Assembly: GCA_003551215.1 (NCBI GenBank)
Contig: PUMD01000133.1
Coordinates: 2,494 to 66,493 of the forward strand
Length of the DNA: 64,000 bases
Source: Clostridia bacterium
GTDB lineage: Bacteria > Bacillota > Sulfobacillia > SLMV01
Reading direction: 5' to 3'
A model generated the notes under the pieces. The model did no database searches and was not told where the DNA came from. It was given only the letters and a program-made list of their open reading frames with translations. Position 1 is the first letter of the stretch. Each line of letters opens with the position of its first letter. Made by a program: the position numbers and the translations under genes. Shown piece after piece: positions 37,101 to 56,114 of the stretch.

Positions 37101-37309
37101 TCGGTATCGGTGCTTATGCGGTCCTCCAGTCTGCTGCAAACCTGGACAATGCACGATGCGGACAGGACTATTGCAGCAAATATAAGGTTCGGCCTAGAAA
37201 TGGGGAGCCTGCAGAAGGAACGGTGGCTGATGCTTTGTGAAGCAAATCTCATGCAGGTGTTAAAGTTAGATAAGCGTTTTAAGCACTCGAAATCGGTCTT
37301 TAGTCATGC

Positions 37310-37348
37310 TTGATAAAATTATATGGTCTTCTTAGAATGTATATGGTC
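37310..37348 (+). promoter_or_regulatory. Candidate promoter of the hydrogenase structural operon, flanked by TATATGGTC direct repeats
   Basis: TTGATA (37310-15), a 17-nt spacer, then TAGAAT (37333-38). TATATGGTC at 37320-28 and 37340-48. Upstream imperfect palindrome GTGTTAAAG-N8-CGTTTTAAGCAC (37257-37286). Confidence 0.3.
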
Positions 37349-37484
37349 GTTGTTTGGTGTAAACGGTTGAGATGTATCGGTCGCCTGTTGGAGTTTGCGG
37401 CCTCTAGCATCGCGCCTTCAGCGACTCCGTATTGTCTTGTCGGCTATGATCTGAAGTTTCGATTTGGAAAGGGGTGCAAAGGTA

Positions 37485-38075
37485 GTGGACAAACAAGGCT
37501 TCGGAGGCCCCAGTGAAGATGGCGAAAGAACCGCTTGGTACGAGCGGCAGATCGACTGGGATGCCGTCGGGGATCGCCAGGAAAGTGCTGATTACGAAGA
37601 GGATATAGACTGGGATGCCGTCGAGGAGAAGGTGGACGAGATAATCAATGAATACGACGGAGATTCCGGCGCCCTGATCGAAGTGCTGCACGAAGTTCAG
37701 GAGCTGGTCGGGTATCTGCCGCAAAGGGTGCAGGTGCGGGTGGCTGACCGTCTCGGTCTATCGGTGAGTGAAGTCTACAGTGTGGTCACCTTTTACTCAC
37801 TGTTTTCTCTGAAACCCAAGGGCGAAAACCACATAACGGTATGCAAGGGTACCGCCTGTTACGTTCGCGGTGCAGCCCAGTTAATTGAAGAACTGGAAAA
37901 TCAACTGGGTATCTCTGTGGGCGATACCACAAGCGATGGAAAGTTTTCCCTGGAAGTGGTGAGGTGTCTGGGGGCGTGCGGGCTTGGTCCGGTAGCGATG
38001 GTTAACAACGAGGATGTTTTCGCGCGAATAACCGTCGATCAGGTTTCCGATATGCTGCAGCAGTACGAGGACTAG
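37485..38075 (+). CDS. hydC: NuoE-like [2Fe-2S] subunit of a multimeric [FeFe] hydrogenase (HydC/HndA-like), with an acidic N-terminal extension
   Basis: Thioredoxin-like 2Fe-2S motifs CKGTACYVRG...CLGACGLGP. N-terminus carries a duplicated IDWDAV segment. Start uncertain (GTG 37485 or TTG 37464). Confidence 0.7.
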   Translation: MDKQGFGGPSEDGERTAWYERQIDWDAVGDRQESADYEEDIDWDAVEEKVDEIINEYDGDSGALIEVLHEVQELVGYLPQRVQVRVADRLGLSVSEVYSVVTFYSLFSLKPKGENHITVCKGTACYVRGAAQLIEELENQLGISVGDTTSDGKFSLEVVRCLGACGLGPVAMVNNEDVFARITVDQVSDMLQQYED

Positions 38076-38085
38076 GCGGGCAATT

Positions 38086-38736
38086 ATGGAAGAGATATCG
38101 CTTCATGTGCTGGACATAGCAGAAAACTCCATAAATTCGGGAGCCACTGAACTGGCCATCACTATAGAGGAGCTGCCAGGTGACGGTCTGCTGTCGGTGA
38201 GTATCGCCGATGACGGGGGCGGTATCGCGTCCGATATGCTTCCAAAAGTGGCGGACCCTTTTACTACCAGTAGGACTACGCGAAAAGTCGGCCTGGGGCT
38301 GGCCTTTTTGCAGGAAGCCTGCTGTTCTGCTGGTGGCAACCTTCAGGTCCGTTCCGATTGCCGGGGTACCGTGGTTGCTGCTACCTTTCAGTACGGACAT
38401 ATTGACCGTCCTCCGCTCGGGGATATGGCCTCCACATTGGTGGTACTGGTGGCAACAAAGCCGGGCTTGCGGGTTTCGTATCGGCACGACGTGGGGGACA
38501 GAACGTTCGAGTTCGATACCAAGCAGCTGGACGAGTGGTTTGGCGACCTGGGCGAAAAACAGCAGCGCAGTCCGGTCGTGCTCCAGTGGCTGAGGCGGTA
38601 TCTTGAGGATAACTTGGAATCGCTGCGCGAGGGAGTACAGACGGATGTTCATAATCAAGGACACGCAGGCGACCAAGACCAAAGCCTGATCCGTCGGTCG
38701 CCGGCGGGGAGCATTGATCAACAACAGACTGACTGA
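38086..38736 (+). CDS. Histidine-kinase-like ATPase domain protein (HATPase_c only) embedded in the hydrogenase operon
   Basis: N box HVLDIAENSINSG. G boxes DDGGGI and GLGLAF. No HisKA/phospho-acceptor domain. Confidence 0.6.
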   Translation: MEEISLHVLDIAENSINSGATELAITIEELPGDGLLSVSIADDGGGIASDMLPKVADPFTTSRTTRKVGLGLAFLQEACCSAGGNLQVRSDCRGTVVAATFQYGHIDRPPLGDMASTLVVLVATKPGLRVSYRHDVGDRTFEFDTKQLDEWFGDLGEKQQRSPVVLQWLRRYLEDNLESLREGVQTDVHNQGHAGDQDQSLIRRSPAGSIDQQQTD

Positions 38737-38754
38737 GCGAAGGGGGAGACAACG

Positions 38755-41700
38755 ATGAGCAAACAGCGCGCTCATGTTTTGGTGTGTGCGGGAGCAGGCT
38801 GCATATCTTCCGGTTGCCGGGAGACGGCGGCTGAACTCAGCAACGCACTCAGAGAACACGGCCTGGAAGATGAGATTCGCGTGGTGGAGACCGGGTGCAT
38901 GGGGCCATGCGATCTGGGGCCTGTGGTGGTAGTTTATCCCGAAGGCGTGCTTTATCAGCAGGTTAAGCCGGAAGATGCTCAACTGATTGCCGAAGAACAT
39001 CTGCTCAAGGGACGGGTAGTCGAAGAGTTAACCTATCGATTGCCCGGCGTCGGGGAATTCATCCCGAGCCAGGAAGAGATGCCGTTTTTTGGTCACCAAA
39101 ACCGGATTGCCCTGCGCAACGCGGGCTTGATTGATCCGGATTCCATAGAAGAGTACATAGCCCGCGATGGTTACGCCGGCTTGGCCAAAGTGCTTTCGTC
39201 CATGCAGCCAGGAGAGGTAATCGACGCTATAAAAGAATCTGGCCTGCGGGGGCGCGGGGGTGCTGGTTTTCCCACCGGCCTCAAGTGGCAGTTTACCAAA
39301 GATGCTGAAGGGGATACCAAATACGTAGTGTGCAACGCCGATGAGGGAGACCCAGGAGCGTTCATGGACCGCAGTATTCTGGAGGGTGATCCCCACAGCA
39401 TCTTGGAAGCGATGGCAATTGCCGGGTACGCGGTCGGTGCCGGTCAGGGTTACGTTTATGTGCGTGCGGAATACCCGCTGGCTGTCGAGCGTCTCCGGCG
39501 GGCAATAGCCAAAGCTCGAGAATACGGACTGCTCGGTGAAAACATCTTCAGCGCGGATTTCTGCTTTGACATCGACATACGAGTAGGCGCCGGGGCGTTC
39601 GTGTGTGGAGAGGAAACTGCACTTTTGGCCTCTATAGAGGGTCGGACCGGACAGCCCAGACCCCGTCCGCCGTTTCCGGCGAATGAAGGCCTGTGGGGCA
39701 AACCTACGCTCCTTAACAACGTGGAGACCTTTGCCAACGTGGCTCCCATAATTCTCAACGGTGCAGACTGGTTCGCCGGAATAGGTACTGAGGACAGCGC
39801 TGGAACCAAGGTGTTTGCCCTTGCCGGTGATGTTATCAATACCGGTCTTGTTGAGGTTCCCATGGGCACTCCGCTGAGCGATATTGTCTTTGACATAGGC
39901 GGGGGAGTACCAGATGGAAGGAAATTCAAAGCTGCTCAGACCGGCGGCCCTTCGGGAGGATGTATCCCCGCGGAATATCTGAATACTCCGGTTGATTACG
40001 AGTCGCTGACAGAACTGGGCACCATTATGGGGTCAGGCGGCCTGATAATTGTTGATGAGGACACCTGTATGCCCGACTTCGCCAAGTTCTTCTTGGAATT
40101 TGTTCAGGATGAGTCTTGCGGTAAGTGTCATCCGTGTCGTATAGGTACCAAGCGCATGCTGGAAATACTTGAGCGCATAACTGCCGGTGAAGGAGAAGAA
40201 GGGGATATCGATCGCCTGGTTGAGCTGGGGGAGCAGATAAAAGAGCTGGCTCTCTGCGGGCTAGGTCAGTCTGCCCCCAATCCGGTGCTGACCACCATCG
40301 AGTACTTCCGTGAAGAGTACGAGGCACACGTAAGGGACAAGGAATGTCCCGCCTCGGTGTGCGCCTCTCTGTTTACTTCTCCCTGTCAGAACGCCTGCCC
40401 GGCAGATGTGGACGTCCCACTTTACATCGACCTGGTGCGGCAGGGTCGTTTCGAAGAAGCCTACCGTGTGATCAAGACTGAGATGCCGCTGCCTGGAGTC
40501 TGCGGATACGTTTGCAACCATCCCTGCGAGGGTAAGTGTCAGCGGGTGCAGATCGATGAATCGATTGCCATCAGATCCCTGAAGAGATTTGCCACCGATG
40601 CCGTACTGCAGGACAGCGGTGAGCTGCCCGCCCTCGAACGTCTGGCAGAGCGGGAAGGGAAAGTGGCTGTTGTGGGTTCCGGTCCAGCCGGGCTCTCTGC
40701 GGCTCACTTTTTGGCGCGAGTCGGATACTCGGTCACCGTTTTCGAAGCCATGCCGGTATTGGGCGGTACTCTGGCTGCGGGAATCCCTGAGTATCGCTTG
40801 CCAGAAGATGTTCTGGAAGCGGAGATTGAAACGGTGAGCAAGCTGGGAGTCGAGTTCAGAACCGGCGTCTGTGTGGGTAGCGACATTACGCTTGATGAGC
40901 TCAAACAACAGGGTTATGAGGCCATATTCCTGGGAGTTGGTGCTCACAAGAGCCGACGGCTGGGTATACCCGGCGAGGATCTCGACGGCGTGACCCACAG
41001 CATCGAGTTTCTGCGTGACGTAAACGTAGGTCAGCAGACCGACCTCAGTGGTGCTTCCGTGGCGGTAATCGGCGGTGGTAATGCAGCAGTCGATGCAGCC
41101 CGTACGGCTGGTCGTTTGGGGGCCCGAGATGTGAAAATCGTCTACCGGCGCCGAGAAGAAGATATGCCGGCGCTGGATGAGGAAATAGAAGATGCCCTGG
41201 CCGAAGGCATAGAGCTGATAACTCTGGCTAACCCGACGAAGGTGATAGGCCGTGACGGTAGAGTAAGAACCCTCAAATGCCAGCAAATGCAGCTGGGCGA
41301 ATACGATCAGAGCGCCCGGCCCCGACCGATTCCTGCAGAAGGCTCCACCTTCGACCTGGACGTGGATGTGGTGATCGTGGCCATCAGCCAGCAGCCAGAA
41401 GGTGAGTTCACTCTGGAGGGTAAACAGGTGGAGACCACCGATTGGGATACTTTCCCGGTGGATGAAGACACTCTGGCCACCAACGTTCGGGGAGTATTCG
41501 CAGGCGGTGACTGCGTAACCGGCCCCGATACTGTGATCGAAGCCGTTGCAGCTGGTAAGAGGGCGGCCGCGGCCATTGACGTATATCTCGGAGGCGACGG
41601 ACAGATCGTACGCAAGCCTGCCATGGATCGAGTGATCGGTCACGAACTGCTGGAAACCAAGACCGAGCGCGTGGCCATGCCGAAAGTTGCCGCTGACGGG

Positions 41701-41823
41701 CGAAAGGGATTCTCGGTTGTCGAGTTAGGGTATTCCCCAGAGCAAGCAGTGGCGGAGGCCAGAAGATGCCTCAGGTGCGATGTTGAAGACGTGTCTCAGT
41801 CGTCGGGCGAGGCTGCGAATTAA
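38755..41823 (+). CDS. hydB: NuoF-like flavoprotein subunit (HydB/HndC-like) fused to a GltD/NfnB-like NAD(P)H oxidoreductase domain
   Basis: N-terminal thioredoxin-like 2Fe-2S (CAGAGC...CMGPC). NuoF FMN/NADH site ([16 protein letters not shown]; [12 protein letters not shown]). Two ferredoxin-like CxxCxxC clusters. Then a GltD-type module ([19 protein letters not shown]...; [17 protein letters not shown]). 1022 aa single ORF. RBS GGGGGAG. Confidence 0.8.
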
Positions 41824-41842
41824 ATGACCGGAGGTGAGTGCA

Positions 41843-43576
41843 GTGAGTGAAGTTTCTTTAACCATAAACGGACGTGACGTATCTGCGGCTCCCGGGACAA
41901 CGATTCTTGAGGCAGCCAAGCAGATCGATGTTGATATACCAACCCTGTGCTATCTCGAGGGGATCAACGAGATAGGCGCCTGCCGGGTCTGTGTTGTCGA
42001 ATGTGAGGGCAGCCTGCTGGCTGCCTGTACGACCCCGGTGACTGATGGAATGTCCGTGGTCACTAACAGTCCGAAGGTGAGAGCTGCCCGTCGAACCAAT
42101 GTTGAACTCATCCTCTCAGACCACGATGGCGACTGTCTATCCTGCAGCCGCAGCATGAACTGTGAGCTGCAGACCATTGCCCGCAACCTCGGAATTCGGG
42201 AAATCAGATATGAGGGAGAGATGTCCAGCCACCCTCGAGATGAGTCCAGTCCTTCACTGGTCCGGGATCCAGACAAATGCATTCTCTGTCAGCGGTGCTC
42301 AAGTGTCTGCAAGCAGGTTCAGGACGTGGAGGCCATCGATACCGTGGGACGCGGTTTTCAGATGCAGGTCGGTCCGGCCTTTGAGCAGACCATGGACGAG
42401 ATAGCCTGTGTCAATTGCGGTCAATGCATTCTCGTGTGCCCCACTGGTGCAATCACTGAGAAGGATTACAGAGAGGAAGTCTGGGGTGCTCTGAGCGACC
42501 CTGACAAACACGTAGTGGTTCAGACTGCTCCCGCTGTCCGGGTGTCCATTGGTGAAACTTTGGGCATGGAGCCTGGCAGTATTGTAACCGGACAGATGGT
42601 GGCCGGGCTGCGTCTTTTGGGCTTCGACAGGGTGTTTGACACTGATTTCGCAGCTGATCTGACTATAATGGAGGAAGGGAGCGAACTGCTGGCCCGCCTG
42701 AACGAAGGCGGTACGGTCCCGCTGCTGACCTCCTGTAGCCCCGGGTGGATAAAATACGTGGAGCATTTCTATCCGGAATTCACGGATCATCTCTCTACGT
42801 GCAAGTCTCCGCAGCAGATGTTCGGGGCACTGGCCAAGACTTTCTACGCGGAGAAGGCGGGAATCAAACCGGAAGATATTTTTGTGGTATCGGTAATGCC
42901 GTGCACCGCGAAGAAATTTGAGGCCCAGAGGCCGGAAATGGGAGCCAGCGGTTACGCCGACGTGGATGTCGTTCTGACCACCCGCGAGATGGGGCTGATG
43001 TTTTCGGAAGCCGGAGTAGACCTGAGACATCTCGAGGAGGAAGAGTTCGACGATCCTCTCGGGATATCAACTGGTGCCGCGGCTGTTTTCGGCGCTACCG
43101 GTGGCGTGATGGAAGCGGCTCTTCGCACGGTGTACGAGCTGGTTACCGGAGAGGAGCTTGAGGAGCTGGACTTTCACGATGTCCGTGGGTTGCAAGGAGT
43201 CAAGGAAGCCGAAGTTGATCTGCAGGGTACCACGGTTAAAGTGGCGGTGGCCCACGGCCTGAGCAAGGCACGCGGTGTCCTTGACGCCATTAAAGAAGGA
43301 AAAGCCGACTACACGTTTGTGGAAGTGATGTGCTGTCCGGGAGGTTGCATTGGCGGTGGCGGTCAGCCCCTACCCACGGATGACGAGATCAGACAGAAGC
43401 GGATCGACGCCATCTATCAGGTTGATAGAGACATGCCCCTGCGTAAATCGCACGAGAACCCGGCCGTGCAGGCTCTGTACGAGGAATATCTAGGTGAACC
43501 TCTCAGCGACAAGTCACATGAGCTTCTGCACACCGATTATTTGAGGCGCGAGGCGCACGCCGGGTATATCGGCTGA
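41843..43576 (+). CDS. hydA: [FeFe] hydrogenase catalytic subunit HydA (HndD-like), with an L1 motif variant
   Basis: N-terminal plant-type 2Fe-2S and 4Fe-4S ferredoxin domains. H-cluster motifs L1 TSCSPGW (canonical TSCCPxW), L2 MPCTAKKFE, L3 EVMCCPGGCIGGGGQP. GTG start after GGAGGTGA. Confidence 0.85.
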   Translation: MSEVSLTINGRDVSAAPGTTILEAAKQIDVDIPTLCYLEGINEIGACRVCVVECEGSLLAACTTPVTDGMSVVTNSPKVRAARRTNVELILSDHDGDCLSCSRSMNCELQTIARNLGIREIRYEGEMSSHPRDESSPSLVRDPDKCILCQRCSSVCKQVQDVEAIDTVGRGFQMQVGPAFEQTMDEIACVNCGQCILVCPTGAITEKDYREEVWGALSDPDKHVVVQTAPAVRVSIGETLGMEPGSIVTGQMVAGLRLLGFDRVFDTDFAADLTIMEEGSELLARLNEGGTVPLLTSCSPGWIKYVEHFYPEFTDHLSTCKSPQQMFGALAKTFYAEKAGIKPEDIFVVSVMPCTAKKFEAQRPEMGASGYADVDVVLTTREMGLMFSEAGVDLRHLEEEEFDDPLGISTGAAAVFGATGGVMEAALRTVYELVTGEELEELDFHDVRGLQGVKEAEVDLQGTTVKVAVAHGLSKARGVLDAIKEGKADYTFVEVMCCPGGCIGGGGQPLPTDDEIRQKRIDAIYQVDRDMPLRKSHENPAVQALYEEYLGEPLSDKSHELLHTDYLRREAHAGYIG

Positions 43577-43604
43577 TATGGAAGAGCCTGGAGGTGAAGC
43601 TGAC

Positions 43605-43970
43605 ATGAAGATTGAGTCTCTGGATGATCTCCGCAAAGTCCGGGAGCAGGCCAAGGAAGGCATCAGCGTGCGGGAAGGCGGCGATGTCAAGATAGTAGTG
43701 GGCATGGGCACATGCGGCATCGCTGCTGGCGCGCGTGAGGTACTCTCGGCGGTACTGGAGGAGCTGGCGGAGAGAAACATTGTTGGAGTTGATGTTACAC
43801 AGACCGGTTGTGCTGGCTTGTGTGAACATGAACCCCTCCTTGAAGTCATCACCGAGGACCAGCCGCGCGTAGTGTACGGAAAGGTGACACCAGATCGGGC
43901 CAGGAAAATAGTGGTACAGCACCTGATCAATAGGCAGATAGTAGGTGAATGGGTACTCAAGAAGGATTGA
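43605..43970 (+). CDS. Stand-alone thioredoxin-like [2Fe-2S] ferredoxin (14-kDa HndB/HydD-like)
   Basis: GMGTCGIAAGAREV...TGCAGLCEHEPLLEV motifs. ATG 7 nt after GGAGGTGA. Confidence 0.65.
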   Translation: MKIESLDDLRKVREQAKEGISVREGGDVKIVVGMGTCGIAAGAREVLSAVLEELAERNIVGVDVTQTGCAGLCEHEPLLEVITEDQPRVVYGKVTPDRARKIVVQHLINRQIVGEWVLKKD

Positions 43971-44006
43971 GTTGGTTGTGCGAGAAGCCCATACGAGGGA
44001 ATCGTC

Positions 44007-44600
44007 GTGTCGGGCGGCGTAGCGATATTCTCGCTCCGGCACGACGATAGCCCTCCGATATCGCCCATTGTATATGCGGGGCTGGACCTTTTGTCCCGGG
44101 TGGTTGTCGGGCAATTCGATACGGAAGAAGGTGTCCTCTTGCAGCTGGAATATGAAGTAAAGGGGATGGATTTCCGGAATGCAGGCAAGGCTTCAACTAG
44201 AGTCCGGAAGAGGCTGCAGCAGCTGGGCCTCGACTCGACAACCCTCAGAAGCGTTGCGGTTATCTGTTATGAGGCGGAGATGAACATCGTAATACACGCC
44301 TATGAAGGACGCCTTATAGTGGATATAGATACGACCATGATCGAGATAACAGCCCGGGACCGGGGACCAGGGATTGAGGACATAGAACGTGCCATGCAGG
44401 ACGGGTTCTCTACGGCGCCCGAGCACGTGCGCGAAATGGGTTTCGGTGCGGGTATGGTCCTCACAAACATCAAGAGGCTGGCTAATTCCCTGCAGTTGGA
44501 ATCCACTGAGGGTGAGGGTACATGTTTGAAAGCGGTAGTCTACTACGGCTACCCACAGAAAGGTGGTGTTCAGTCGTGCCAGGGAAGTTTCACTCCGTGA
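44007..44600 (+). CDS. RsbW/SpoIIAB-type serine-protein kinase (anti-sigma-regulatory-factor-like HATPase)
   Basis: HATPase_c_2-like boxes (EAEMNIVIHA; ARDRGPGI; GFGAGM). GTG start after GAGGGA. Confidence 0.55.
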   Translation: MSGGVAIFSLRHDDSPPISPIVYAGLDLLSRVVVGQFDTEEGVLLQLEYEVKGMDFRNAGKASTRVRKRLQQLGLDSTTLRSVAVICYEAEMNIVIHAYEGRLIVDIDTTMIEITARDRGPGIEDIERAMQDGFSTAPEHVREMGFGAGMVLTNIKRLANSLQLESTEGEGTCLKAVVYYGYPQKGGVQSCQGSFTP

Positions 44601-46282: not shown

Positions 46283-47017
46283 ATGGTGGATCTGCACATC
46301 CATACCGCCCTATCGCCGTGTGCCAGTGATGATATGACACCGGACAACATTGTGGCTGCTTCTCGAGAACGCAATCTCGACGTCATAGGAATAGCTGATC
46401 ATAATTCAGCGGCGAATGTGCGGGCGGTGGTGGCGGCTGCCGACAGCTTTGACCTGGTCGTGCTGCCTTGCTTGGAAGTTCAGACTTCCGAAGAGGTACA
46501 TGTGCTGTGCGTCTTCGATGATCTGGAGAGCGTTGCGGCATGGCAAGAGCATGTCTACCGGCACCTGCCAGATCGGGCCAATGATGAGGAGATTTTCGGG
46601 CGCCAGCATCTGTACGACGAATCGGGTATACTGTCGGGCAGCGAAAACCAGCTGCTATTGGTGAGCGCGGATTTGACCCTGGAATCAGTTTTTGAGGTGG
46701 TTTCGGTGCTGGGAGGGGTGTGTATTCCGGCCCATGTTGACCGTCGCAGCTTCGGACTTCTGGGAGTGTTGGGATTCGTCCCGGAGTCGTTGGACATATC
46801 AGCAGTCGAGGTGTCGCCCAATTTTCCGGGTGATGATGGTTTGAGCATACCGGACTCGGCCGCTACCGTACGTTTTTCTGATGCCCACACTCTGTCAGAT
46901 CTGGGGAACCAGTTTACAACTATGTGGATGGAAGCCCCGACTGTTGAGTGCCTGATGCAGGCCTTCAGGGGAGATGGAGGGAGAAGGGTCAAACCGCGGT
47001 TCGCCAGGGGGGATTAG
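46283..47017 (+). CDS. PHP-domain phosphoesterase
   Basis: HIHTALSP...ADHNS...PAHVDR His/Asp motifs of the polymerase and histidinol-phosphatase fold. Confidence 0.6.
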   Translation: MVDLHIHTALSPCASDDMTPDNIVAASRERNLDVIGIADHNSAANVRAVVAAADSFDLVVLPCLEVQTSEEVHVLCVFDDLESVAAWQEHVYRHLPDRANDEEIFGRQHLYDESGILSGSENQLLLVSADLTLESVFEVVSVLGGVCIPAHVDRRSFGLLGVLGFVPESLDISAVEVSPNFPGDDGLSIPDSAATVRFSDAHTLSDLGNQFTTMWMEAPTVECLMQAFRGDGGRRVKPRFARGD

Positions 47018-47043
47018 CAGCCCTACAGAAAGGAGGAGGTGAC

Positions 47044-49152: not shown

Positions 49153-49342
49153 ACAGCCTGCGGTGGGCAGTTGTGTTATTCTGCGGTTACGTATTTTGGA
49201 CGCTGTTGGTAGGTTTGGAGATTTCCTGAGCTGGTCAGAGACATTCTGGCAGTGAGGGGTAGTTTTCAGTACAACATACCTCCTGAGTCGAGGGTGGTGC
49301 AAAGGACACCTGAACCACAGGGAGGCACCATGCATACCAAGG

Positions 49343-49374
49343 GCCTACCTGTGTTTCTGCATGGGTAGGCTTTT
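49343..49374 (+). terminator. Rho-independent terminator, about 190 nt downstream of the hydrogenase-kinase fusion gene
   Basis: GCCTACC, a 13-nt loop, GGTAGGC, then TTTTT. Confidence 0.5.
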
Positions 49375-49458
49375 TACGTCAATCGCCGGTGTTGCCAGTC
49401 AACTAAGACAACGTGACGAGAGCGAGTGAGCAAAGGCTTCGGGAATGGGAGGCAAACC

Positions 49459-49737
49459 ATGGATCAAAGGATTGGCGTGGTGGGGATCGTGATAGAAGAC
49501 CGAGAGTGCATCGCACCTGAGGTTAACCGAATACTGAGCCAGTTTGGGGATGTTATCGTCGGCAGAATTGGGGTGCCGCGTCCGGACCATGACTTGGCGG
49601 TGATCGCGCTTATCGTACAGGGCACTGCAGATCAGATGGGAGCTCTTACTGGTCGGTTGGGGAATCTACCTTCGGTTCAAGTGAAGTCCGGAATGACCTC
49701 AAAGAGAGTGAAGACAGACGGGGAGGGATGCAGGTGA
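49459..49737 (+). CDS. Small ACT-like putative iron-only-hydrogenase system regulator (TM1266-like)
   Basis: About 92 aa, MDQRIGVVGIVIEDRE... Typical size and position immediately upstream of hydG. RBS GGGAGG. Confidence 0.5.
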   Translation: MDQRIGVVGIVIEDRECIAPEVNRILSQFGDVIVGRIGVPRPDHDLAVIALIVQGTADQMGALTGRLGNLPSVQVKSGMTSKRVKTDGEGCR

Positions 49738-51137
49738 AGCAGCTGCAGGAGGTGATTTCGGAGGAGAGAATATTCAATGTGCTTTCGGATGCTGCCGGAT
49801 CCAGCCGGCAGGAAGCCGGACGCATCATAGACAAGGGCCGCAACCTACAAGGTCTGAGCCCCAAAGAGGCGGCAGTTCTGCTGACCATCGACGAAGAGGA
49901 TCTGCGGCAGCTATTGCTGCAGGCAGCTCGAGAGGTAAAGGAACAGATTTACGGAAAGCGGCTGGTGATCTTCGCTCCGCTTTATCTGGATAATATCTGC
50001 CATAACAGCTGTCTTTACTGCGGTTTCCGAAAAGAGAACCAGAAAATAGAACGACGGCGGTTGTCGATGGAGGAAATAAAAAAAGAAGTCTCTGCTTTGC
50101 AGAAGGAAGGACACAAGCGGCTGTTGATTCTTACCGGCGAGAAGCGGGATGCGGATCTGGACTATCTGCTGGATGGAATAGCTGCTGCATACCAGGTGCA
50201 GACCAAAAAGGGAGGACAGACTCGCAGGATCAACGTCGAGGTCGCTCCCATGACCGACAAAGAGTTTGAGTCTCTTGCGGAAGCGAATATAGGTACGTAT
50301 ACCTGTTTTCAAGAGACCTACCACCGCCCCACCTATAAGAGAATGCACCCGCGAGGGCGGAAGGCAGATTTCGACTGGCGTCTGACGGTTATGGATCGCG
50401 CTCAGCGTGCTGGTATAGACGATGTGGGTATCGGAGCGCTTTTTGGTCTTTATGATTACCGCTATGAGGTGGTGGCAATGCTCCTGCACGCTCAGTATTT
50501 GAGTGAAACCTACGGAGTCGGACCGCACACTGTATCTGTCCCGCGGTTGCAGCCCGCTGCCGAGGCACCGATACGCAAGTCCCCTTACCCGATTTCCGAT
50601 GAGGATTTCAAGAAATTGGTCGCCGTGCTCCGATTGGCTATCCCTTATACCGGGATAATCCTGAGCACCCGGGAACCGGTTTCCCTGCGTAATCAGCTAT
50701 TTATGCACGGTGTTTCTCAGATCAGCGTCGGCTCCCGGACTGCCCCCGGTGCCTACCAGCAAGACGAGCAGGGCTGCGGCAAGCGAGCGCAGTTTACTCT
50801 GCACGATAGTCGTCCTATGTCCGAAGTGGTGGCTGAAGTCGCCAAGGCCAACTATATTCCCAGTTTTTGCACTGCCTGCTACAGAGAAGGGAGAACCGGT
50901 GAGGCTTTCATGGATCTGGCCATACCGGGCAAGATTAGCAACTACTGCAAGCCGAATGCCATGTTGACCTTCAAGGAATATCTCACGAACTATGCCGATG
51001 AAGTGACCACAAAGGCAGGAGAGGCCTGTCTCAACCACCATCTGCGGGAAATCAAGAGCGGAGATAAACAGCTAGCCCAATGGATTGAGCGGGCCTTCGA
51101 CCGCATGCAACGGGGGGAACGCGACATTTACCTGTAG
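49728..51137 (+). CDS. hydG: [FeFe] hydrogenase maturase HydG (radical SAM tyrosine lyase)
   Basis: Radical-SAM CHNSCLYCGF. C-terminal auxiliary cluster motif C-x2-C-x22-C (FCTACYREG...ISNYC). 469 aa. Confidence 0.85.
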   Translation: MQVKQLQEVISEERIFNVLSDAAGSSRQEAGRIIDKGRNLQGLSPKEAAVLLTIDEEDLRQLLLQAAREVKEQIYGKRLVIFAPLYLDNICHNSCLYCGFRKENQKIERRRLSMEEIKKEVSALQKEGHKRLLILTGEKRDADLDYLLDGIAAAYQVQTKKGGQTRRINVEVAPMTDKEFESLAEANIGTYTCFQETYHRPTYKRMHPRGRKADFDWRLTVMDRAQRAGIDDVGIGALFGLYDYRYEVVAMLLHAQYLSETYGVGPHTVSVPRLQPAAEAPIRKSPYPISDEDFKKLVAVLRLAIPYTGIILSTREPVSLRNQLFMHGVSQISVGSRTAPGAYQQDEQGCGKRAQFTLHDSRPMSEVVAEVAKANYIPSFCTACYREGRTGEAFMDLAIPGKISNYCKPNAMLTFKEYLTNYADEVTTKAGEACLNHHLREIKSGDKQLAQWIERAFDRMQRGERDIYL

Positions 51138-51140
51138 GAG

Positions 51141-52445
51141 GTGATCGCCATTCAGAAAACACCGAGAGCAACTCGTCCACATATAGCAGTTTTCGGCAGG
51201 CGCAATGTTGGTAAATCCACCTTGGTCAACGCGCTGGCAAACCAAAACGTAGCAGTGGTTTCGTCGGTACCGGGTACCACAACTGATCCGGTTTACAAAT
51301 CAATGGAACTTCACCCGTTCGGACCGGTTGTGCTGATTGATACTGCCGGAATAGATGATGCGGGCGACCTGGGGGAAGTACGGGTGAACCGCACCAGGCG
51401 TGTGCTTCGCCGGACCGATCTGGCTTTATTGGTGGTCGATCCGCGGCAGGGAATCGGCGAGTGGGAAACGGACTTTCTGTCAGAGGTTAACCGCGATAAA
51501 GTTTCTGTGCTGGCAGTCATAAACAAAATTGATCGAGCGGAAAGAAAGGATCTAAGAGGTATCCGGCGAGAAGTCAGAAACGGGCTGGATCTCCCGGTAG
51601 TCCGGGTCAGTGCCGAGCAGCATAGGGGCATTGATGCACTGCGGGATGAGATAGTGGCCCATCTTCCCCGCAGGGCGAAGGCAGATACCATCGCTGCGGA
51701 CCTTGTATCGGAGGGGAATCTGTGCCTGCTGGTCACTCATATCGATGAGGCTGCTCCCCAGGGCCGGCTGATTTTACCTCAGGTGCAGACGCTGCGCGAT
51801 CTGTTGGACCATGGCTGTCCTGCGCTGGTGACGAAAGAAAGCGAACTACCTCTGGCCCTCAGCAGATTATCGTCGCCGCCGGGTCTGGTTATATGTGATT
51901 CGCAGGTGTTTCCCCGGGTACAGGAGTGCTTGCCGGGGGATGTTTCATTGACCAGCTTCTCCATTTTATTTGCGCGACTTAAAGGGGATTTTCAATTCTA
52001 CCTGCGGAGCCTGCAACAGTTGGAGAGACTTGCCCCCCAAACGAGGATCATCGTAGCCGAGGCATGTACGCATAGGGTTACGCACGAGGATATAGGGCGC
52101 GTCAAGATCCCGCGCATGTTGTGCAGCCGATACCCCGATCGAGCATTTATATTTGATTACTGCTCCGGCAGCGATTTTCCCGATGACCTCGATCCCTACG
52201 ATCTAATGTTGCACTGCGGCGGGTGCATGTTGAATCGCACAGAAGTTCTGTCGCGTCTCGGCGAAGCCCAGGAGGCCTCACTTCCAGTAATAAACTATGG
52301 TATGCTCCTCGCCTACCTCAACGGTATCCTTGGACGAGCCCTTCAACCGATACTGGGCAAACAACCTGCTTATCAATATTGTGGCATCGGGGATGATGTG
52401 CGCGTTGGTGACGATGCAAGGCGAGGTGAAGATGATGTCAGTTAG
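51141..52445 (+). CDS. hydF: [FeFe] hydrogenase maturation GTPase HydF
   Basis: GRRNVGKSTL (G1), DTAG (G3), NKID (G4). C-terminal CxH...HCGGC cluster motif. Start codon uncertain (GTG 51141 abuts the GGAGG). Confidence 0.8.
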   Translation: MIAIQKTPRATRPHIAVFGRRNVGKSTLVNALANQNVAVVSSVPGTTTDPVYKSMELHPFGPVVLIDTAGIDDAGDLGEVRVNRTRRVLRRTDLALLVVDPRQGIGEWETDFLSEVNRDKVSVLAVINKIDRAERKDLRGIRREVRNGLDLPVVRVSAEQHRGIDALRDEIVAHLPRRAKADTIAADLVSEGNLCLLVTHIDEAAPQGRLILPQVQTLRDLLDHGCPALVTKESELPLALSRLSSPPGLVICDSQVFPRVQECLPGDVSLTSFSILFARLKGDFQFYLRSLQQLERLAPQTRIIVAEACTHRVTHEDIGRVKIPRMLCSRYPDRAFIFDYCSGSDFPDDLDPYDLMLHCGGCMLNRTEVLSRLGEAQEASLPVINYGMLLAYLNGILGRALQPILGKQPAYQYCGIGDDVRVGDDARRGEDDVS

Positions 52446-53526
52446 TGAGACAGCATACAGTCACGAGTATATCCACAACATCTTAAAACGGGCACACTGC
52501 CAGGGCCCGGAACTATCCGTAGGGGAGATCGAGGCGCTGCTCAGCATAGGTCATCCCGACGGGCTCGAATCTCTCTACGCTATTGCTGATAAGGTTCGGA
52601 AAGATACGGCAGGTGATGGGATTCACCTGCGAGGACTGATAGAGTTTTCCAATTACTGTCGCAGAAATTGCCTGTACTGCGGGCTGCGCAGGGCTAACCG
52701 TCGTCTGACCCGGTATCGGATGGATCAAACAGAGGTTTTGGGAGTTGTGCAGGCCATGGCGGAGCGGGGTATAAAGACCGTGGTATTGCAGTCGGGGGAA
52801 GATCCGCACTTCACACAGGCGCGGATGGTTTCCCTCGTTGAAAAGATAAAATCGCGTTTTGATATAGCCATTACCCTGAGTGTGGGTATACGATCTCAAA
52901 AGGATCTGATCGCTTTCCGGGCGGCGGGTGCTGACCGCTATCTACTGCGCCATGAAACTGCAAACCGCCAGCTATACTCTCAGCTGCACCCAGATTCCCG
53001 ACTCGGCGACCGAGTAGAAATGCTGCATGCGCTCAGCGAATTGGGATATGATATCGGCACTGGACCCATGGTGGGGCTTCCCGGACAGACTTACCGAGAT
53101 CTGGCCTTGGATATTGATCTGGCCCGACGACTCAAAGCCGATATGTTTGGCGTTGGTCCGTTCATCCCTCATCCGGATACTCCCCTGAGTGAGGCACAGG
53201 AGGGTACAGCAGAGGACACTTTCAAGATGATTGCGCTGGCACGTATAGTTTTAAGGGAGGTTCACATACCTGTGACTACCGCCCTGACCACCCTGGATGC
53301 CGAGGCCCGGGAGAAGGGATGGAACAGAGGGGCAAACGTAGTTATGCCGAACGGCACGCCAGCTCCTTATCGCGAGCAGTATGAATTATATAAGGATAAG
53401 AGATGCCTGCAGGATTCGCTGAAGCGATGTGCGGTTTGTCTGCAGATGCGGGTTCAGTCCGTTTCACGCCATATCAGCTCAGGTTATGGTGATTCCCTGC
53501 GCAGTGACAGACAGAGGTCTTCCTGA
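52432..53526 (+). CDS. hydE: [FeFe] hydrogenase maturase HydE (radical SAM)
   Basis: CRRNCLYCGLRRAN radical-SAM motif, about 364 aa. ATGATG start after GGCGAGGTGAAG, overlapping the hydF stop. Confidence 0.8.
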   Translation: MMSVSETAYSHEYIHNILKRAHCQGPELSVGEIEALLSIGHPDGLESLYAIADKVRKDTAGDGIHLRGLIEFSNYCRRNCLYCGLRRANRRLTRYRMDQTEVLGVVQAMAERGIKTVVLQSGEDPHFTQARMVSLVEKIKSRFDIAITLSVGIRSQKDLIAFRAAGADRYLLRHETANRQLYSQLHPDSRLGDRVEMLHALSELGYDIGTGPMVGLPGQTYRDLALDIDLARRLKADMFGVGPFIPHPDTPLSEAQEGTAEDTFKMIALARIVLREVHIPVTTALTTLDAEAREKGWNRGANVVMPNGTPAPYREQYELYKDKRCLQDSLKRCAVCLQMRVQSVSRHISSGYGDSLRSDRQRSS

Positions 53527-53596
53527 TAACGTTGGAGGAAAGTCCTCCTATCTAAAGATTGCGGGCATCAAGATCTGGCGATTGTGATTGATCGAA

Positions 53597-53631
53597 CAAG
53601 ATTGAGTTGCAAGATTGAGACATAGTATAAT
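53597..53631 (+). promoter_or_regulatory. Promoter-like region with tandem CAAGATTGAG repeats upstream of the stand-alone receiver gene
   Basis: CAAGATTGAG at 53597 and 53610 (13-nt period), further GATTG copies upstream, -10 TATAAT at 53626. Confidence 0.3.
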
Positions 53632-53749
53632 TGCATTGCTGACCAGCAGCCAGTAAGAAAACCGATTGTAACGATCTTCTGCTCGGTCTGCAGGGTCGTT
53701 TGCATCTTCTAACATAGACCGAGTCCTTACGGGAAGGGAGGTCAAATCG

Positions 53750-54154
53750 ATGACAGAAGGAAAGACTGTTCTCCTGATTGATGATGATGCCGATTTCGTA
53801 GACTTGAACAAAAAGGCTCTGGAGGATGCTGGTTACGAAGTGGAGACTGCTTATGATGGAGAAGAGGGCATGCAGAAAGCCAAAGATATCAAGCCGGATG
53901 CAATAGTCCTTGACGTTATGATGACTACCTCCACAGAAGGGTTTGAAGTGGCGCGGGATATGCGCAATGATCCCAAGACCAAGCACACCCCGATCATCAT
54001 GCTTACGTCCATAAATGCACCTGAGCACGGGCTGCCCCGTGCCCTCGGAGAGTATGACAAGGACGAGACTTGGAACCCGGTGGACGTATTCCTCAACAAG
54101 CCAGTGTCTCCTGAGGAGCTGCTAGAAAAGATAGAAGATGCCCTCAAACGGTAG
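53750..54154 (+). CDS. Stand-alone response-regulator receiver (CheY-like)
   Basis: LLIDDD, D in IVLDVMM, TPIIMLTS, NKP motifs. 134 aa with no output domain. Confidence 0.75.
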   Translation: MTEGKTVLLIDDDADFVDLNKKALEDAGYEVETAYDGEEGMQKAKDIKPDAIVLDVMMTTSTEGFEVARDMRNDPKTKHTPIIMLTSINAPEHGLPRALGEYDKDETWNPVDVFLNKPVSPEELLEKIEDALKR

Positions 54155-54169
54155 CATCTGACAGAACTG

Positions 54170-54432
54170 ACTTGGCGTCGCACAGACTCAGCAGACGATG
54201 ACGCAGGCTTTGCGGGAGTAAAGAGGAGAGCACCTGGGGCATCCGGTAATGAGGTCTCGAGTATGAGCAGTCTGACGATATCCAGCTGGATTTGATGATG
54301 GCGCACAGTGATGCAGGTTTCCACTATGCATGCGAGATCAAATCCCGAAATCAGGAAGTACCGGTGATGATGTTGACCGGAGCCGCATTGAACACGCAAC
54401 ATGGGGTCAGGCTTTTTAGATGCTGGCGAGCC
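54170..54432 (+). pseudogene. Frameshifted, degenerate remnant of a second receiver domain
   Basis: One frame reads ..DDDAGFAG... A +1 frame reads YEQSDDIQLDLMMAHSDAGFHYACEIKSRNQEVPVMMLTGAAL, matching the PDLILLDLMMPG...PIIMLTA receiver signature. No intact ORF. Confidence 0.45.
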
Positions 54433-54544
54433 AGGGATGGATAGCAGTGGCGCTTATTCGAAGACCCTCATTTCCAGGAGCGTCCTGCTGGAGACGTCCG
54501 ACGCTTGCTGGATCAGGCCTATGAGCGGTGCGACTTAGTGCTGT

Positions 54545-54574
54545 GGAGACCGGGTGGAATTCCACCCGGTCTCC
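54545..54574. repeat. Perfect 30-nt palindrome 20 nt upstream of the hybrid kinase gene
   Basis: GGAGACCGGGTGGAA|TTCCACCCGGTCTCC, exact reverse complement over 15+15 nt. Confidence 0.6.
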
Positions 54575-54593
54575 GTGTTAGAGGGGCGATAAT

Positions 54594-56114
54594 GTGACAA
54601 AACCTGAGGATCCCCAAAAATACGTACAGAACATCCTTGATGAGCAAGACGGTTCTCCTCAGATAATTGTTCTTGATGACGAGGAATCGATACGCTCGGG
54701 GTGTAAGAAAGCGCTGGAGGGTGAGGGCTTGGAGGTAGACGTTGCCGCCGATGGTGTGCAAGGTTGGGAGATGCTCAATCGCAAGGAGTATGATCTGGCA
54801 CTGGTGGATCTGAGGATGCCAGGTCTGGACGGTATATCAGTTCTCGAAAGGATGCAGGATGCGATGCCAGATGTGGTGACGATAGTGATCACCGGCTACG
54901 CTTCCTTTGAGACTGCCGTTGAGACCGTCAAGCTTGGGGCCTATGACTATATACCGAAGCCGTTTACTCCCGAGGAGCTGCGGAATGTGGTCAACCGGGG
55001 ACTGGAACGGCGATTTCTCCAGCTTGCCAACCGGCGATTGCGGGAAGAAAGAGAACGGAACCTCCTAACCCTCACTGAAGAAAGAAGCCGCCTGATAACC
55101 GTTCTGAACGCTATGTCTGACGGAGTACTGGTGATCAACCGATCGGGACAGCTGGTACTTTTCAACCCGAGCGCCCTGCATTGGGTGCTGAAGGACAGAC
55201 AAGTCAATGAAGAACAGCCCCCAGTAGCGCTGGAGGAAGCCGTCAGGGAGGAGGCCCTTTTGCAGCTTGTTGAGGCGATAGAACAGGATGAACAGCTGGA
55301 CCAGCAGGATGTTGAGCTAGAGATAGATGGTGAGCGGTTCATCCATGCCGCCGGGGCTGCCGTTCGGGACGAAAATGACCGTTACCTGGGCGTGGTGATT
55401 GTGCTGCGTGACATCACCGAGCGCAAGGAAATTGAGAAAATGAAGACAGCGCTGGTGAGGACGGTTTCACATGAGCTGAGGTCTCCGCTGGCAGCGGTAG
55501 AGGGTTATCTGAACTATCTTGATGATGAAGATCAGGACCCCTCCGAGCGGAGCCACATGGTGCACAGATGTCGCGAACGCATTCAGGGACTGCAGCAGAC
55601 CATAAATGATTTGCTTGACCTCTCCAGACTGGAAAGCGGACAGGTTCATCGGGAGCTAAGGAAGCACAACCTGACAGATATCCTCGATGAAATAGTGCAG
55701 CTGCAGAAAGGGGTTGCCGCAGAGCGAAATATTTCCATTGATCTTCATGCACCTGAGGATCTGCCGGTGCTGGCTGACAAGCGCGAACTGTCCGAGATAT
55801 TTGGCAATCTCATTTCGAATGCAATTAAGTACAATCAGGATGATGGGCAGGTATGGGTCAAGGCCGGAAGCGACGGCGAGTATATCGTCGTAGAGGTATC
55901 TGACACCGGTATCGGGATCAAGCCTGAGGCGCTGGATAGCATTTTTGATGAGTTCTATCGCGTTCGTGGCCGTCAGACGGCAAAGATCAGCGGGTCTGGC
56001 CTGGGACTGGCAATCGTTAAGCGGCTGGTGGAGCAGTACCAGGGCCGCATCTTAGTCGAAAGCGAGTTGGGCGAGGGCTCCACCTTTGAGGTGAATCTGC
56101 CCATTCGCCCCTAG
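54594..56114 (+). CDS. Hybrid sensor: N-terminal receiver plus PAS plus histidine kinase
   Basis: REC (IIVLDDEE; LALVDLRMPG; TIVITGYA; YIPKPF). PAS-like (LNAMSDGVLVINRSG). H box VSHELRSPLAAV. N/G boxes (NAIKYN; DTGIGI; GSGLGLAIV). GTG start after GAGGGG. Confidence 0.75.
   Translation: MTKPEDPQKYVQNILDEQDGSPQIIVLDDEESIRSGCKKALEGEGLEVDVAADGVQGWEMLNRKEYDLALVDLRMPGLDGISVLERMQDAMPDVVTIVITGYASFETAVETVKLGAYDYIPKPFTPEELRNVVNRGLERRFLQLANRRLREERERNLLTLTEERSRLITVLNAMSDGVLVINRSGQLVLFNPSALHWVLKDRQVNEEQPPVALEEAVREEALLQLVEAIEQDEQLDQQDVELEIDGERFIHAAGAAVRDENDRYLGVVIVLRDITERKEIEKMKTALVRTVSHELRSPLAAVEGYLNYLDDEDQDPSERSHMVHRCRERIQGLQQTINDLLDLSRLESGQVHRELRKHNLTDILDEIVQLQKGVAAERNISIDLHAPEDLPVLADKRELSEIFGNLISNAIKYNQDDGQVWVKAGSDGEYIVVEVSDTGIGIKPEALDSIFDEFYRVRGRQTAKISGSGLGLAIVKRLVEQYQGRILVESELGEGSTFEVNLPIRP

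Follow-up and report, generated by a model that had tools for sequence, protein, structure and literature searches.

Gene content of the hydrogenase locus

The DNA analysed here is a stretch of 64,000 nucleotides from a Clostridia bacterium (assembly GCA_003551215.1, contig PUMD01000133.1, positions 2,494 to 66,493; 'the window' in what follows), in which an [FeFe]-hydrogenase locus sits between recD2 and comEC. As delimited from the open reading frame listing, Pfam and NCBIfam, this locus extends from 36606 to 56114 (approximately 19.5 kb) and comprises 16 intact genes, all on the plus strand, and one receiver pseudogene; start codons were adjusted to agree with the gene calls of databases and with ribosome-binding sites that are conserved. 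The genes named in a previous reading made from the letters alone (the sequence-only reading) were all found again by the same three means, in the same order and on the plus strand. It had described short gaps or overlaps throughout, which holds for most junctions (−25 to +36 nt) but not at four longer spacers: 384 nt before hydC, 306 nt before the TM1266-family gene, 223 nt before the stand-alone receiver and 439 nt where the pseudogene lies. Loci used for comparison carry numbers with the prefix L; three of them (L028, L029 and L030) are syntenic relatives of the window.

The putative sensor kinase HydS-HK (47044–49152, 702 residues) combines two [4Fe-4S] clusters, an H-domain, a C-terminal iron–sulfur motif and a coiled coil with HisKA and HATPase domains, as assigned using Pfam. 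Its start is backed by a database copy (P0242, 702 residues, 100% identical over the full length). Across 84 family members, 16 metal-binding cysteines and His478 are 98–100% conserved, His478 itself in all of them. These cysteines are the eight of the two N-terminal [4Fe-4S] clusters, the H-site residues Cys152, Cys204, Cys312 and Cys315, and those of the C-terminal Cx2Cx4Cx16C motif; GPCxAKKxE and APSF are conserved to the same degree. The proton-relay cysteine is absent (SSACP), Met353 is replaced by glycine as in TmHydS, and motif 3 reads LLCEGCIAGP, with CxxC spacing instead of CxxxC. The iron–sulfur motif (to Cys424) is followed by the coiled coil and, from about residue 469, by HisKA with the H-box AHEINNPL; no match to a PAS domain, by which group C (M2f) is defined, was found in the protein. 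The direct fusion to HisKA and HATPase_c corresponds to the 'histidine kinase-linked' class C1 of HydDB, an assignment made by architecture. Both HydS-like proteins of the locus score below every NCBIfam hydrogenase cut-off. The HydS-HK family is large (2977 protein clusters at E ≤ 1e-30), and its best 120 members all come from metagenome-assembled genomes (MAGs) or metagenomes, under generic names. A sensory role has been proposed for group C and group D enzymes (PMC8163306, PMC5037454). In Thermanaeromonas toyohensis (L022) the equivalent sensor core carries a sigma-54 AAA+ domain and HTH_8 as a fusion. That one sensor core exchanges its output domains in this way speaks for a role in signalling that ends in transcription.

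Two receivers and a second kinase close the locus. The stand-alone receiver REC_A (53750–54154, 134 residues; PF00072, E = 3.2e-19) is intact, and its translation retains the catalytic residues Asp12/Asp13, Asp55, Thr86 and Lys117. It is 68% identical to the receiver that follows HydS-HK in L031, 51–53% identical to those of L032, L034 and L038, and 35–39% identical to those of L028–L030. The next receiver, REC_B (approximately 54185–54530), is the degraded copy that the sequence-only reading had noticed, and it is a real pseudogene: its alignment to the L028 receiver runs through three frames with at least three frame changes, it contains in-frame stops and its start is lost. The longest fragment (57 residues) still matches Response_reg in Pfam (E = 0.0036), and the core DDIQLDLMMAHSDAGFHYACEIKSRNQEVPVMMLTG is identical to the L028 receiver at 25 of 36 positions, which agrees with the 70% identity seen for the adjoining kinase. 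This alignment makes REC_B orthologous to the receiver that the relatives carry between HydS-HK and REC-HK, and the intact REC_A its paralogue. As the identities of REC_A and REC_B differ in this way and five loci (L057, L064, L072, L078 and L099) carry both types in tandem, the module has two old receiver paralogues, of which the window kept type A and lost type B, while L028–L030 have only type B. The dead receiver thus marks a remodelling of the regulatory output, as had been suggested.

The hybrid kinase REC-PAS-HK (54594–56114, 506 residues; REC, PAS, HisKA and HATPase in Pfam) has the H-box SHELRSPL, and its orthologues, 59–70% identical, stand right after HydS-HK and REC in L028, L029 and L030. 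The residues needed for two-component signalling are thus present: the H-box histidine in both kinases, and the acidic pocket, aspartate, threonine and lysine in REC_A. The pseudogene has at its 3′ end, 19 nt upstream of the REC-PAS-HK start, a perfect 14 bp GC-rich hairpin on the plus strand (GGAGACCGGGTGG-AATT-CCACCCGGTCTCC, 54545–54575) with no U tract; the 71-nt segment holding it (54530–54600) has a minimum free energy of −35.6 kcal/mol. It may be what remains of a terminator, or it may act in processing or attenuation.

The enzyme itself is encoded in the first part of the locus. HydC (37485–38075, 196 residues) is a NuoE-like, thioredoxin-like [2Fe-2S] subunit (PF01257, E = 1.9e-51; NF005722, 144 bits against a cut-off of 141). 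The sequence-only reading had set the left edge of the locus, with hydC, at 37101; hydC is real, but 37101–37484 is non-coding, and the start at 37485 was placed by the ribosome-binding site GGAAAGGRGTG, which is conserved with L111. No support was found for this 37101–37484 segment being a decayed DRTGG gene. In the N-terminal extension of HydC (37524–37640), the NuoE-like domain is preceded by a short acidic direct repeat (IDWDAVGDRQES.. / IDWDAVEEKVDE..) that the aligned parts of the relatives lack. Next comes a HATPase-only GHKL ATP-binding protein without a DHp/His domain (38086–38736; HATPase_c, E = 1.3e-12), whose top matches in the PDB are histidine-kinase catalytic domains. It had been taken for a local oddity, but orthologues stand at the equivalent position in every HydB-GltD-type operon examined (L022, L024, L026 and L111), and a histidine-kinase-like gene beside bifurcating hydrogenase genes is known in Thermoanaerobacter (PMC3608648, PMC8163306).

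The third gene encodes a HydB-GltD fusion of 1022 residues (38755–41823; Complex1_51K, NADH_4Fe-4S, Fer4_20 and Pyr_redox_2 in Pfam), in which a NuoF-like FMN/NADH module precedes an NfnB/GltD-like module with two [4Fe-4S] clusters and an FAD/NAD(P)H site. Residues 2–541 match HydB of Acetobacterium woodii (7q4v_B, E = 1.3e-243), the match ending at residue 543 of 599, and residues 542–1012 match the NfnB-type chains 4ylf_B, 9n5u_A and 9bov_A. The C-terminal ferredoxin-type domain of HydB with its two [4Fe-4S] clusters (B3 and B4) is held to be necessary for bifurcation (PMC11406978, PMC9304861). In the window it is replaced by the Fer4_20 domain of the GltD/NfnB module, which also has two [4Fe-4S] clusters but is of another family. 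The fusion is very common: at least 8000 homologues, all of those scored, pass E ≤ 1e-20, and nearly all of those listed (118 of 120) align over 96% of the query or more. These best 120 matches are full-length fusions, from sources including Moorella, Thermanaeromonas and Pelotomaculum. No biochemical study of the fusion was found in the literature searched. The NfnB/GltD-like module suggests a second NAD(P)H site on HydB, and the enzyme may tie H2 to both the NADH and the NADPH pools.

HydA (41843–43576) is a catalytic subunit of the HydABC type (920 bits in NF040763, '[FeFe] hydrogenase group A6', whose cut-off is 765). It is closest to HydA1 of the solved A. woodii and Thermoanaerobacter kivui complexes (7q4v_A, E = 2.6e-208) and carries the H-cluster motifs P1 to P3 as TSCSPGW, MPCTAKKFE and EVMCCPGGCIGGGGQP. 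The first of these (42728–42748) differs from the textbook TSCCPGW, and we considered whether a cluster ligand had been lost. This was rejected: HydA1 of A. woodii (7q4v) has the same variant, as do 33 of the 47 HydA homologues from the compared loci, and it is therefore normal for the clade. Downstream of hydA, the protein that had been labelled a ferredoxin is instead a small thioredoxin-like [2Fe-2S] protein (43605–43970; PF01257, E = 1.2e-4, below the cut-off), with orthologues 55–71% identical in L022, L024, L026 and L111. Taken together, the motifs and the N-terminal 2Fe-2S/4Fe-4S domains of HydA, the NuoE-like HydC (PF01257) and the NuoF-like HydB (PF01512, PF10589) identify the predicted enzyme as a variant of the trimeric HydABC-type (group A3, Bfu-type) [FeFe]-hydrogenase, whose bifurcating activity is putative.

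A second sensing cassette (44007–47017) follows the enzyme genes. Its first product (44007–44600) is a SpoIIAB/RsbW-like, serine-kinase-type HATPase_c_2 protein (PF13581, E = 6.8e-9), whose only PDB matches are four chains of the anti-sigma F factor SpoIIAB (best E = 3.7e-7); its gene also comes before that of HydS in L022, L024 and L026. The second (44576–46258) is a putative sensory hydrogenase fused to DRTGG (Fe_hyd_lg_C, E = 2.3e-33; PF04060; DRTGG). Its translation contains SSACP, in which the proton-relay cysteine is absent, SPC, in which Met353 is replaced by serine, and Cx2Cx4Cx16C (CGSCGAPTC-x16-C), and Pfam gave no PAS domain in this protein. Two [4Fe-4S] clusters, the lack of Cys299, serine for Met353, the Cx2Cx4Cx16C motif and the lack of PAS are the features by which group D (M2e) is recognized (PMC8163306), and HydS-DRTGG is group-D-like by these sequence criteria. 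L022, L024 and L026 encode DRTGG in a gene of its own; in the window it is fused to HydS. The literature found on DRTGG together with hydrogenase has nothing about hydrogenases in its titles or abstracts. The third product (46271–47017) is a PHP-family phosphoesterase-like protein (PF02811, E = 1.3e-4, below the cut-off), with orthologues 44–47% identical at the equivalent relative position in L024 and L026; a PDB sequence search with it gave no match. The hfsABCD operon of Thermoanaerobacterium encodes HfsB with a PAS domain, the serine phosphatase HfsC and the ferredoxin-linked catalytic hydrogenase HfsD (PMC11837493). We rejected hfsABCD as an identification of the cassette, since neither sensor has a PAS domain, PHP is not PP2C and the fourth gene is a kinase fusion.

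Four maturation genes lie between HydS-HK and its receivers: a TM1266-family, ACT-like putative iron-only hydrogenase system regulator (49459–49737; TIGR03959, 98 bits against 61; PF21699, E = 1.7e-28), the radical-SAM H-cluster maturase HydG (49728–51137; TIGR03955, 506 bits against 312), the H-cluster maturation GTPase and scaffold HydF (51141–52445; TIGR03918, 516 bits against 326; HydF_dimer and HydF_tetramer) and the radical-SAM H-cluster maturase HydE (52432–53526; TIGR03956, 349 bits against 255). HydE, HydF and HydG all match at the equivalog level, above the curated cut-offs. No such insertion between sensor kinase and receivers is seen in the syntenic L028–L030.

Linkage, mosaic history and candidate regulatory sites

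The syntenic relatives show which genes belong to the site. recD2 is found in L028 (74%) and L030 (63%) together with the ECF-like gene, and the aminotransferase gene (AT4) with comEC in L029 and L030. Between these flanks, L028–L030 encode HydC, a canonical HydB (615–616 residues), HydA, HydS-HK, one REC and REC-(PAS)-HK, and nothing else, with REC and REC-HK following HydS-HK at gaps of at most 80 nt. A fourth locus, L031, matches over the left half, with HydS-HK at the syntenic site, and its contig ends inside REC. Because the relatives that share the flanks carry the HydS-HK, REC and REC-HK trio, we regard this trio as the conserved core of the site.

The enzyme genes of the window, unlike the kinase genes, are not orthologues of those in the syntenic relatives. 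We compared the window proteins with L028–L030 on the one hand and with T. toyohensis (L022), a Moorellales MAG (L024) and L026 on the other. HydC is 42–47% identical to the former and 54–63% identical to the latter; for HydA the values are 52–54% and 63–66%, and for HydB 51–52% over the first half only against 64–69% over the full length. Conversely, HydS-HK (50–54%) and REC-PAS-HK (59–70%) have full-length matches among these loci only in the syntenic relatives. The additional genes of the window, namely those for the HATPase-only, small [2Fe-2S], HATPase_c_2 and group-D-like HydS proteins and DRTGG, all recur in L022, L024 and L026, and PHP in L024 and L026. By these comparisons the locus is a mosaic of four modules that are also found separately or reordered elsewhere: the enzyme, the second sensing cassette as its usual companion, HydS-HK with its receivers as the resident sensor of the site, and the maturation set. 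The enzyme has been swapped for a Moorella-type unit. Neither the mosaic make-up nor the Rex-like operators described below had been noticed in the sequence-only reading, whose interpretation stands in part. The nearest enzyme operons are those of L111 and L112, from the same sample (HydB-GltD 79% identical), with the order ECF-like, HydC, HATPase, HydB-GltD, HydA and [2Fe-2S]. In L111 a DDE_Tnp_1 transposase gene (L111:9692-11377) comes right after the [2Fe-2S] gene, in the place that the second sensing cassette occupies in the window. This is a hint of a rearrangement, mediated by an insertion sequence, at the junction between the [2Fe-2S] gene and the cassette.

We then measured how far the linkage extends beyond these relatives. 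JGI metagenome contigs were scanned with an alignment of HydS-HK orthologues, which gave 600 candidate stretches, 574 of them encoding relatives, and 80 loci were kept. These and the three syntenic relatives were annotated with the window proteins; 82 of the 83, those with a full-length HydS-HK, were counted, each linkage count being limited to loci with enough flanking sequence. A stand-alone REC lies within 1.2 kb downstream of HydS-HK in 42 of 71 loci. Within 2.5 kb downstream, 29 of 55 loci have a full-length REC-PAS-HK homologue and a further 18 a shorter REC-containing match; of the latter, eight were inspected and proved to be six REC-HisKA-HATPase proteins without PAS and two NtrC-type sigma-54 activators (L062 and L067). 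In total, a REC-kinase or NtrC-type partner follows HydS-HK in 47 of 55 loci. An earlier scan of contigs with a single protein query returned just histidine-kinase-domain matches (26–37% identity, residues ~400–685) and no synteny information.

These counts bear on several points raised by the sequence-only reading. With 42/71 for REC and 47/55 for the REC-kinase or NtrC-type partner, they largely refute an unrelated regulon for the two-component genes, which are conserved partners of the hydrogenase sensor. The possibility that they are linked to other targets elsewhere, which would have separated them from the hydrogenase genes, was checked by comparative genomics and found no support; the grouping into a single, functionally coherent hydrogenase locus is upheld by conserved gene linkage. 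The view of the sequence-only reading that such tight co-localization is rare is refuted, since the modules recur together across metagenome loci. A HydA gene is found no more than 1 kb upstream of HydS-HK in 27 of 56 loci, maturase genes occur anywhere in the locus in 20 of 82, and the double-sensor layout recurs in L057, L059 and L088. Nearly the whole supercluster is found again, for example in L036, L088 and L104; L088 encodes the group-D-like HydS, PHP, HATPase, HydC, [2Fe-2S], HydB-GltD, HydA, REC, HydS-HK, HydG and HydF. The locus belongs to a known, well-populated kind and is not a rarity.

Six of the metagenome loci (L049, L053, L054, L060, L063 and L070) place the trio between two hydrogenase operons, with a canonical HydCBA upstream and, downstream, a REC followed by HydC, a HydB of about 400 residues and a HydA of about 640 residues.

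The left end of the locus carries candidate regulatory sites. Between recD2 and the ECF-S-like gene (36430–36473, plus strand) lie two tandem boxes resembling the Rex operator (TTGTGAA-N4-TTCACAA; PMC2883068), TTGTGAATCTCATCACAT and then the degenerate TTGTTATACATATCACAT. The box at 36430–36447 has two mismatches and is the sole match at up to two mismatches in the 64 kb (0.16 expected), which is weak evidence alone. Boxes of equal or better quality occur in the same recD2/ECF-like spacer of L028 (position 2464, one mismatch), L030 (2601) and L031 (4215); others lie 60–110 bp upstream of HydS-HK in L032, L034, L038 and L094, and one before the T. toyohensis cassette (L022:6323). The gene that follows in the window encodes an ECF-transporter S-component-like membrane protein of 164 residues (36606–37100; ECF_trnsprt, E = 6.9e-4, below the Pfam cut-off), with orthologues adjoining hyd genes in L026, L028, L030, L031, L111 and L102; that it imports flavin or another cofactor precursor is a guess only. 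The conserved boxes suggest that the functional unit begins at the ECF-like gene, to the left of the range given in the sequence-only reading, and the left boundary is better placed at this gene (36606) with the boxes (36430). Hydrogenase genes and hydG are established targets of Rex in other Bacillota (PMC6391272), and a putative Rex input likely adds redox control here. No rex gene was found in the window. A weak Rex-like box with three mismatches (37235–37252) and a sigma-70-like match, TTGATA-17-TAGAAT (37310–37338), lie upstream of hydC, and another sigma-70-like match, TTGAGT-18-TATAAT (53602–53631), before the receiver genes, all by consensus match on the plus strand. The spacers of 384, 306 and 223 nt show no similarity to the relatives or to the rest of the window, and even L111, the 79%-identical relative, shows no conservation of the 384-nt hydC leader. 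Rfam gave no match in the window, and a repeat search gave no direct or inverted repeats at the module junctions.

The surroundings of the locus contain ctsR, cysS, thyX, a sigH-like sigma factor gene, comEA, recD2, a class IV aminotransferase gene, comEC and holA; such housekeeping surroundings are typical of Bacillota. Exact copies of the HydB-GltD, HydS-HK, REC and REC-PAS-HK proteins are encoded on a single NCBI contig and in Logan assemblies of SRR490150. Upstream, and unrelated to the hydrogenase locus, a WYL/WCX-domain HTH regulator (24995–25954) and an RNase HII-like protein whose N-terminus weakly resembles the RnlA toxin (23987–24976) are encoded.

Proposed signalling and its alternatives

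From the gene content, the conservation of the metal ligands and His478 of HydS-HK, the residues of REC_A, the conserved linkage and the mosaic history, we infer H2 as the signal and the order and target of phosphotransfer. The reading that we prefer, with a probability of roughly 0.7, is a composite four-module [FeFe]-hydrogenase locus in which HydS-HK signals through receivers to hydrogenase and maturase expression. H2 would react at the H-cluster of HydS-HK and reduce the accessory clusters, including the C-terminal Cx2Cx4Cx16C cluster abutting the coiled coil, and this reduction would alter autophosphorylation at His478. The phosphate would then move to REC_A and/or to the receiver of REC-PAS-HK, whose PAS domain may integrate a second signal. 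The final output would be control of hydrogenase and maturase expression; other lineages wire the equivalent sensor to sigma-54 activators. At the left end, Rex would probably add NADH/NAD+ control. The SpoIIAB-like kinase, HydS-DRTGG, PHP and the HATPase-only protein may form another branch, possibly a post-translational one, that belongs with the HydB-GltD enzyme; in it, the cassette would link protein phosphorylation to the sensing of H2 or of the redox state. The maturation set (TM1266, HydG, HydF and HydE) would make the [2Fe] subcluster for HydA and presumably for both sensors.

A broader proposal is tentative, and we would not bet on it as a whole: HydS-HK, two paralogous receivers and REC-(PAS)-HK might form a widespread four-component H2-responsive module that, alongside a second, post-translational H2/redox pathway, acts on one NAD(P)H-linked HydABC variant, the loss of REC_B then showing that the receivers are redundant, at least in part, or separately wired.

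Several observations weigh against the preferred reading. No experiment on the kinase-fused form of the sensor is described in the literature searched. No DNA-binding response regulator, response regulator with an output domain or Hpt protein is encoded in the locus or in the 64-kb window, NtrC-type partners occurring in other loci only (L062, L067 and L022). No sigma-54 promoter (TGGCAC-N5-TTGCW) was found in any intergenic region of the locus, and the number of matches was lower than expected by chance. The promoter and Rex sites are consensus matches, and at up to three mismatches the window has four Rex-like matches against 1.9 expected, which is not significant alone. No STAS-type substrate is encoded for the cassette, whose role is pure inference. 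As for the sensor, HydS-HK lacks the relay cysteine and has the CxxC form of motif 3, and a paper on Hydrogenedentota doubts H-cluster binding by HATPase-containing group C1 proteins (PMC11406978), so HydS-HK could be a redox sensor and not an H2 sensor. The main rival generalizes this doubt and holds that the HydS-like proteins are low-activity catalytic hydrogenases or generic Fe–S sensors of ferredoxin or NAD(P)H redox. Both proteins do have SSACP in place of the relay motif and score far below the NCBIfam hydrogenase cut-offs, motif 3 of HydS-HK is altered (LLCEGCIAGP), and TamHydS, of group D, still slowly interconverts H+ and H2 (PMC8163306). However, the four H-site cysteines, the equivalent of Lys358 and the APS motif are 98–100% conserved in the 84 sequences, and Met353 is replaced by serine or glycine as in the putative sensors TamHydS and TmHydS (PMC8163306). 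Moreover, fusion to HisKA-HATPase or to a sigma-54 activator points to signalling and not to catalysis, and the genes are linked to HydEFG. We consider this rival unlikely, although it deserves to be taken seriously.

The other two alternatives concern the grouping of the genes. REC, the REC pseudogene and REC-PAS-HK might be an unrelated two-component system that merely adjoins the hyd genes: no output domain links the receivers to these genes, the 223-nt gap after hydE has a promoter-like site of its own (53602–53631), and homologues of REC-PAS-HK at about 45% identity, annotated as PhoR-like, are found in many phyla. The position of REC and REC-HK directly after HydS-HK in L028–L030 and the downstream counts given above (42/71 and 47/55) largely refute this, the maturases intervening only in the window, and we hold it to be very improbable. 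Another view would make the whole 19-kb block a recent genomic island acquired in one horizontal transfer. The enzyme module does resemble genes of the Moorellales/Thermanaeromonas type more closely than it does their counterparts in the syntenic relatives, the insertion sequence of L111 (DDE_Tnp_1) lies at the junction after the [2Fe-2S] gene, and the spacers 37101–37484 and 49153–49458 matched nothing in the compared loci, the first being unconserved in L111/L112 too. Yet the GC content (0.52–0.57) and GC skew are continuous with the flanks, and no flanking direct repeats, integrase or tRNA was seen, nor any Rfam match. Above all, the ECF-like gene, HydS-HK, the pseudogene REC_B and REC-PAS-HK are orthologous to the relatives' genes at the equivalent chromosomal site, so only part of the locus has been replaced or inserted; a single transfer of the block is thus highly improbable. 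A mis-assembly of the metagenome contig would also undermine the preferred reading, but it is unlikely, because an independent Logan contig spans 38082–44787 of the window; the right half is less secured.

If the HydS-HK pathway operates as proposed, it bears on how anaerobes sense H2 and adjust their [FeFe]-hydrogenases, a field in which the signalling pathway of the spectroscopically studied group C and D sensors is not yet demonstrated. The partners of the kinase-fused sensor are fixed: a REC-kinase together with one small receiver or two, or else, depending on the lineage, a sigma-54 activator. The sensor module has been swapped between different hydrogenase operons, which gives a testable wiring diagram with candidates for phosphotransfer. 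The value of the locus lies in this module map, in the HydS-HK, REC and REC-HK partnership and in a natural receiver loss; it adds no new principle, and current views stand.

Relation to known systems

Individual elements of the locus are already noted in genome papers (PMC3608648, PMC5037454, PMC6163223, PMC8163306, PMC11406978). The enzyme resembles HydABC of A. woodii and T. kivui (7q4v, 8a6t) in HydA, in residues 2–541 of HydB and in the NuoE-like HydC, and shares TSCSPGW with A. woodii. Compared by sequence alone, it differs from both in having the GltD/NfnB module in place of the ferredoxin domain and in the HATPase-only and extra [2Fe-2S] proteins. In Vallitalea guaymasensis L81 an enlarged HydB with a GltD domain has been described and a second NAD(P)H site suggested (PMC6163223). 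This is the same substitution in the beta subunit as in the window, known there by annotation only. The Stn/Nfn-Bfu transhydrogenases also add a GltD/NfnB NAD(P)H module to a core of the NuoE/NuoF/HydA type. In Stn, the GltD module is reportedly carried by a HydA-like subunit without an H-domain. In the solved Nfn-Bfu (9n5u) it is on chain A, NfnA, whereas in the window it is on HydB, next to a complete hydrogenase HydA.

Both sensors have described counterparts. TamHydS of Thermoanaerobacter mathranii (PMC8163306, PMC3608648) shares with HydS-DRTGG the two [4Fe-4S] clusters, the missing relay cysteine, serine for Met353, the Cx2Cx4Cx16C motif and the lack of PAS. The context is also shared: each has a gene for a histidine-kinase-like ATPase as neighbour and is linked to a trimeric group A hydrogenase, TamHydS lying upstream of the bifurcating enzyme. 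The window sensor, in contrast, is fused to DRTGG, has PHP and not an AraC regulator after it, and is encoded downstream of the enzyme. HydS-HK shares two [4Fe-4S] clusters, the H-domain and the C-terminal iron–sulfur motif with the group C sensors (TmHydS, Ruminococcus albus HydS and HfsB) and with HydDB class C1 (PMC5037454, PMC5707799, PMC11837493, PMC11406978). Like group C, it is associated with signal transduction and with hydrogenase genes of group A3, and its glycine for Met353 is that of TmHydS. It differs from group C in that the coiled coil leads straight to HisKA-HATPase, with no PAS between, and in that its partners are REC and REC-HK rather than a PP2C phosphatase or a Ser/Thr kinase. 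A more distant comparison is with HoxBC-HoxJ-HoxA of Ralstonia eutropha (PMC5707799, PMC5665086). The proteins are unrelated, [NiFe] there and [FeFe] here, and the window unites sensor and kinase in one polypeptide and has two receivers and a second hybrid kinase, with no DNA-binding regulator in the locus. The logic is nevertheless parallel: a low-activity hydrogenase serves as an H2 sensor that acts through a histidine kinase on hydrogenase expression, the same chain that we propose for HydS-HK.

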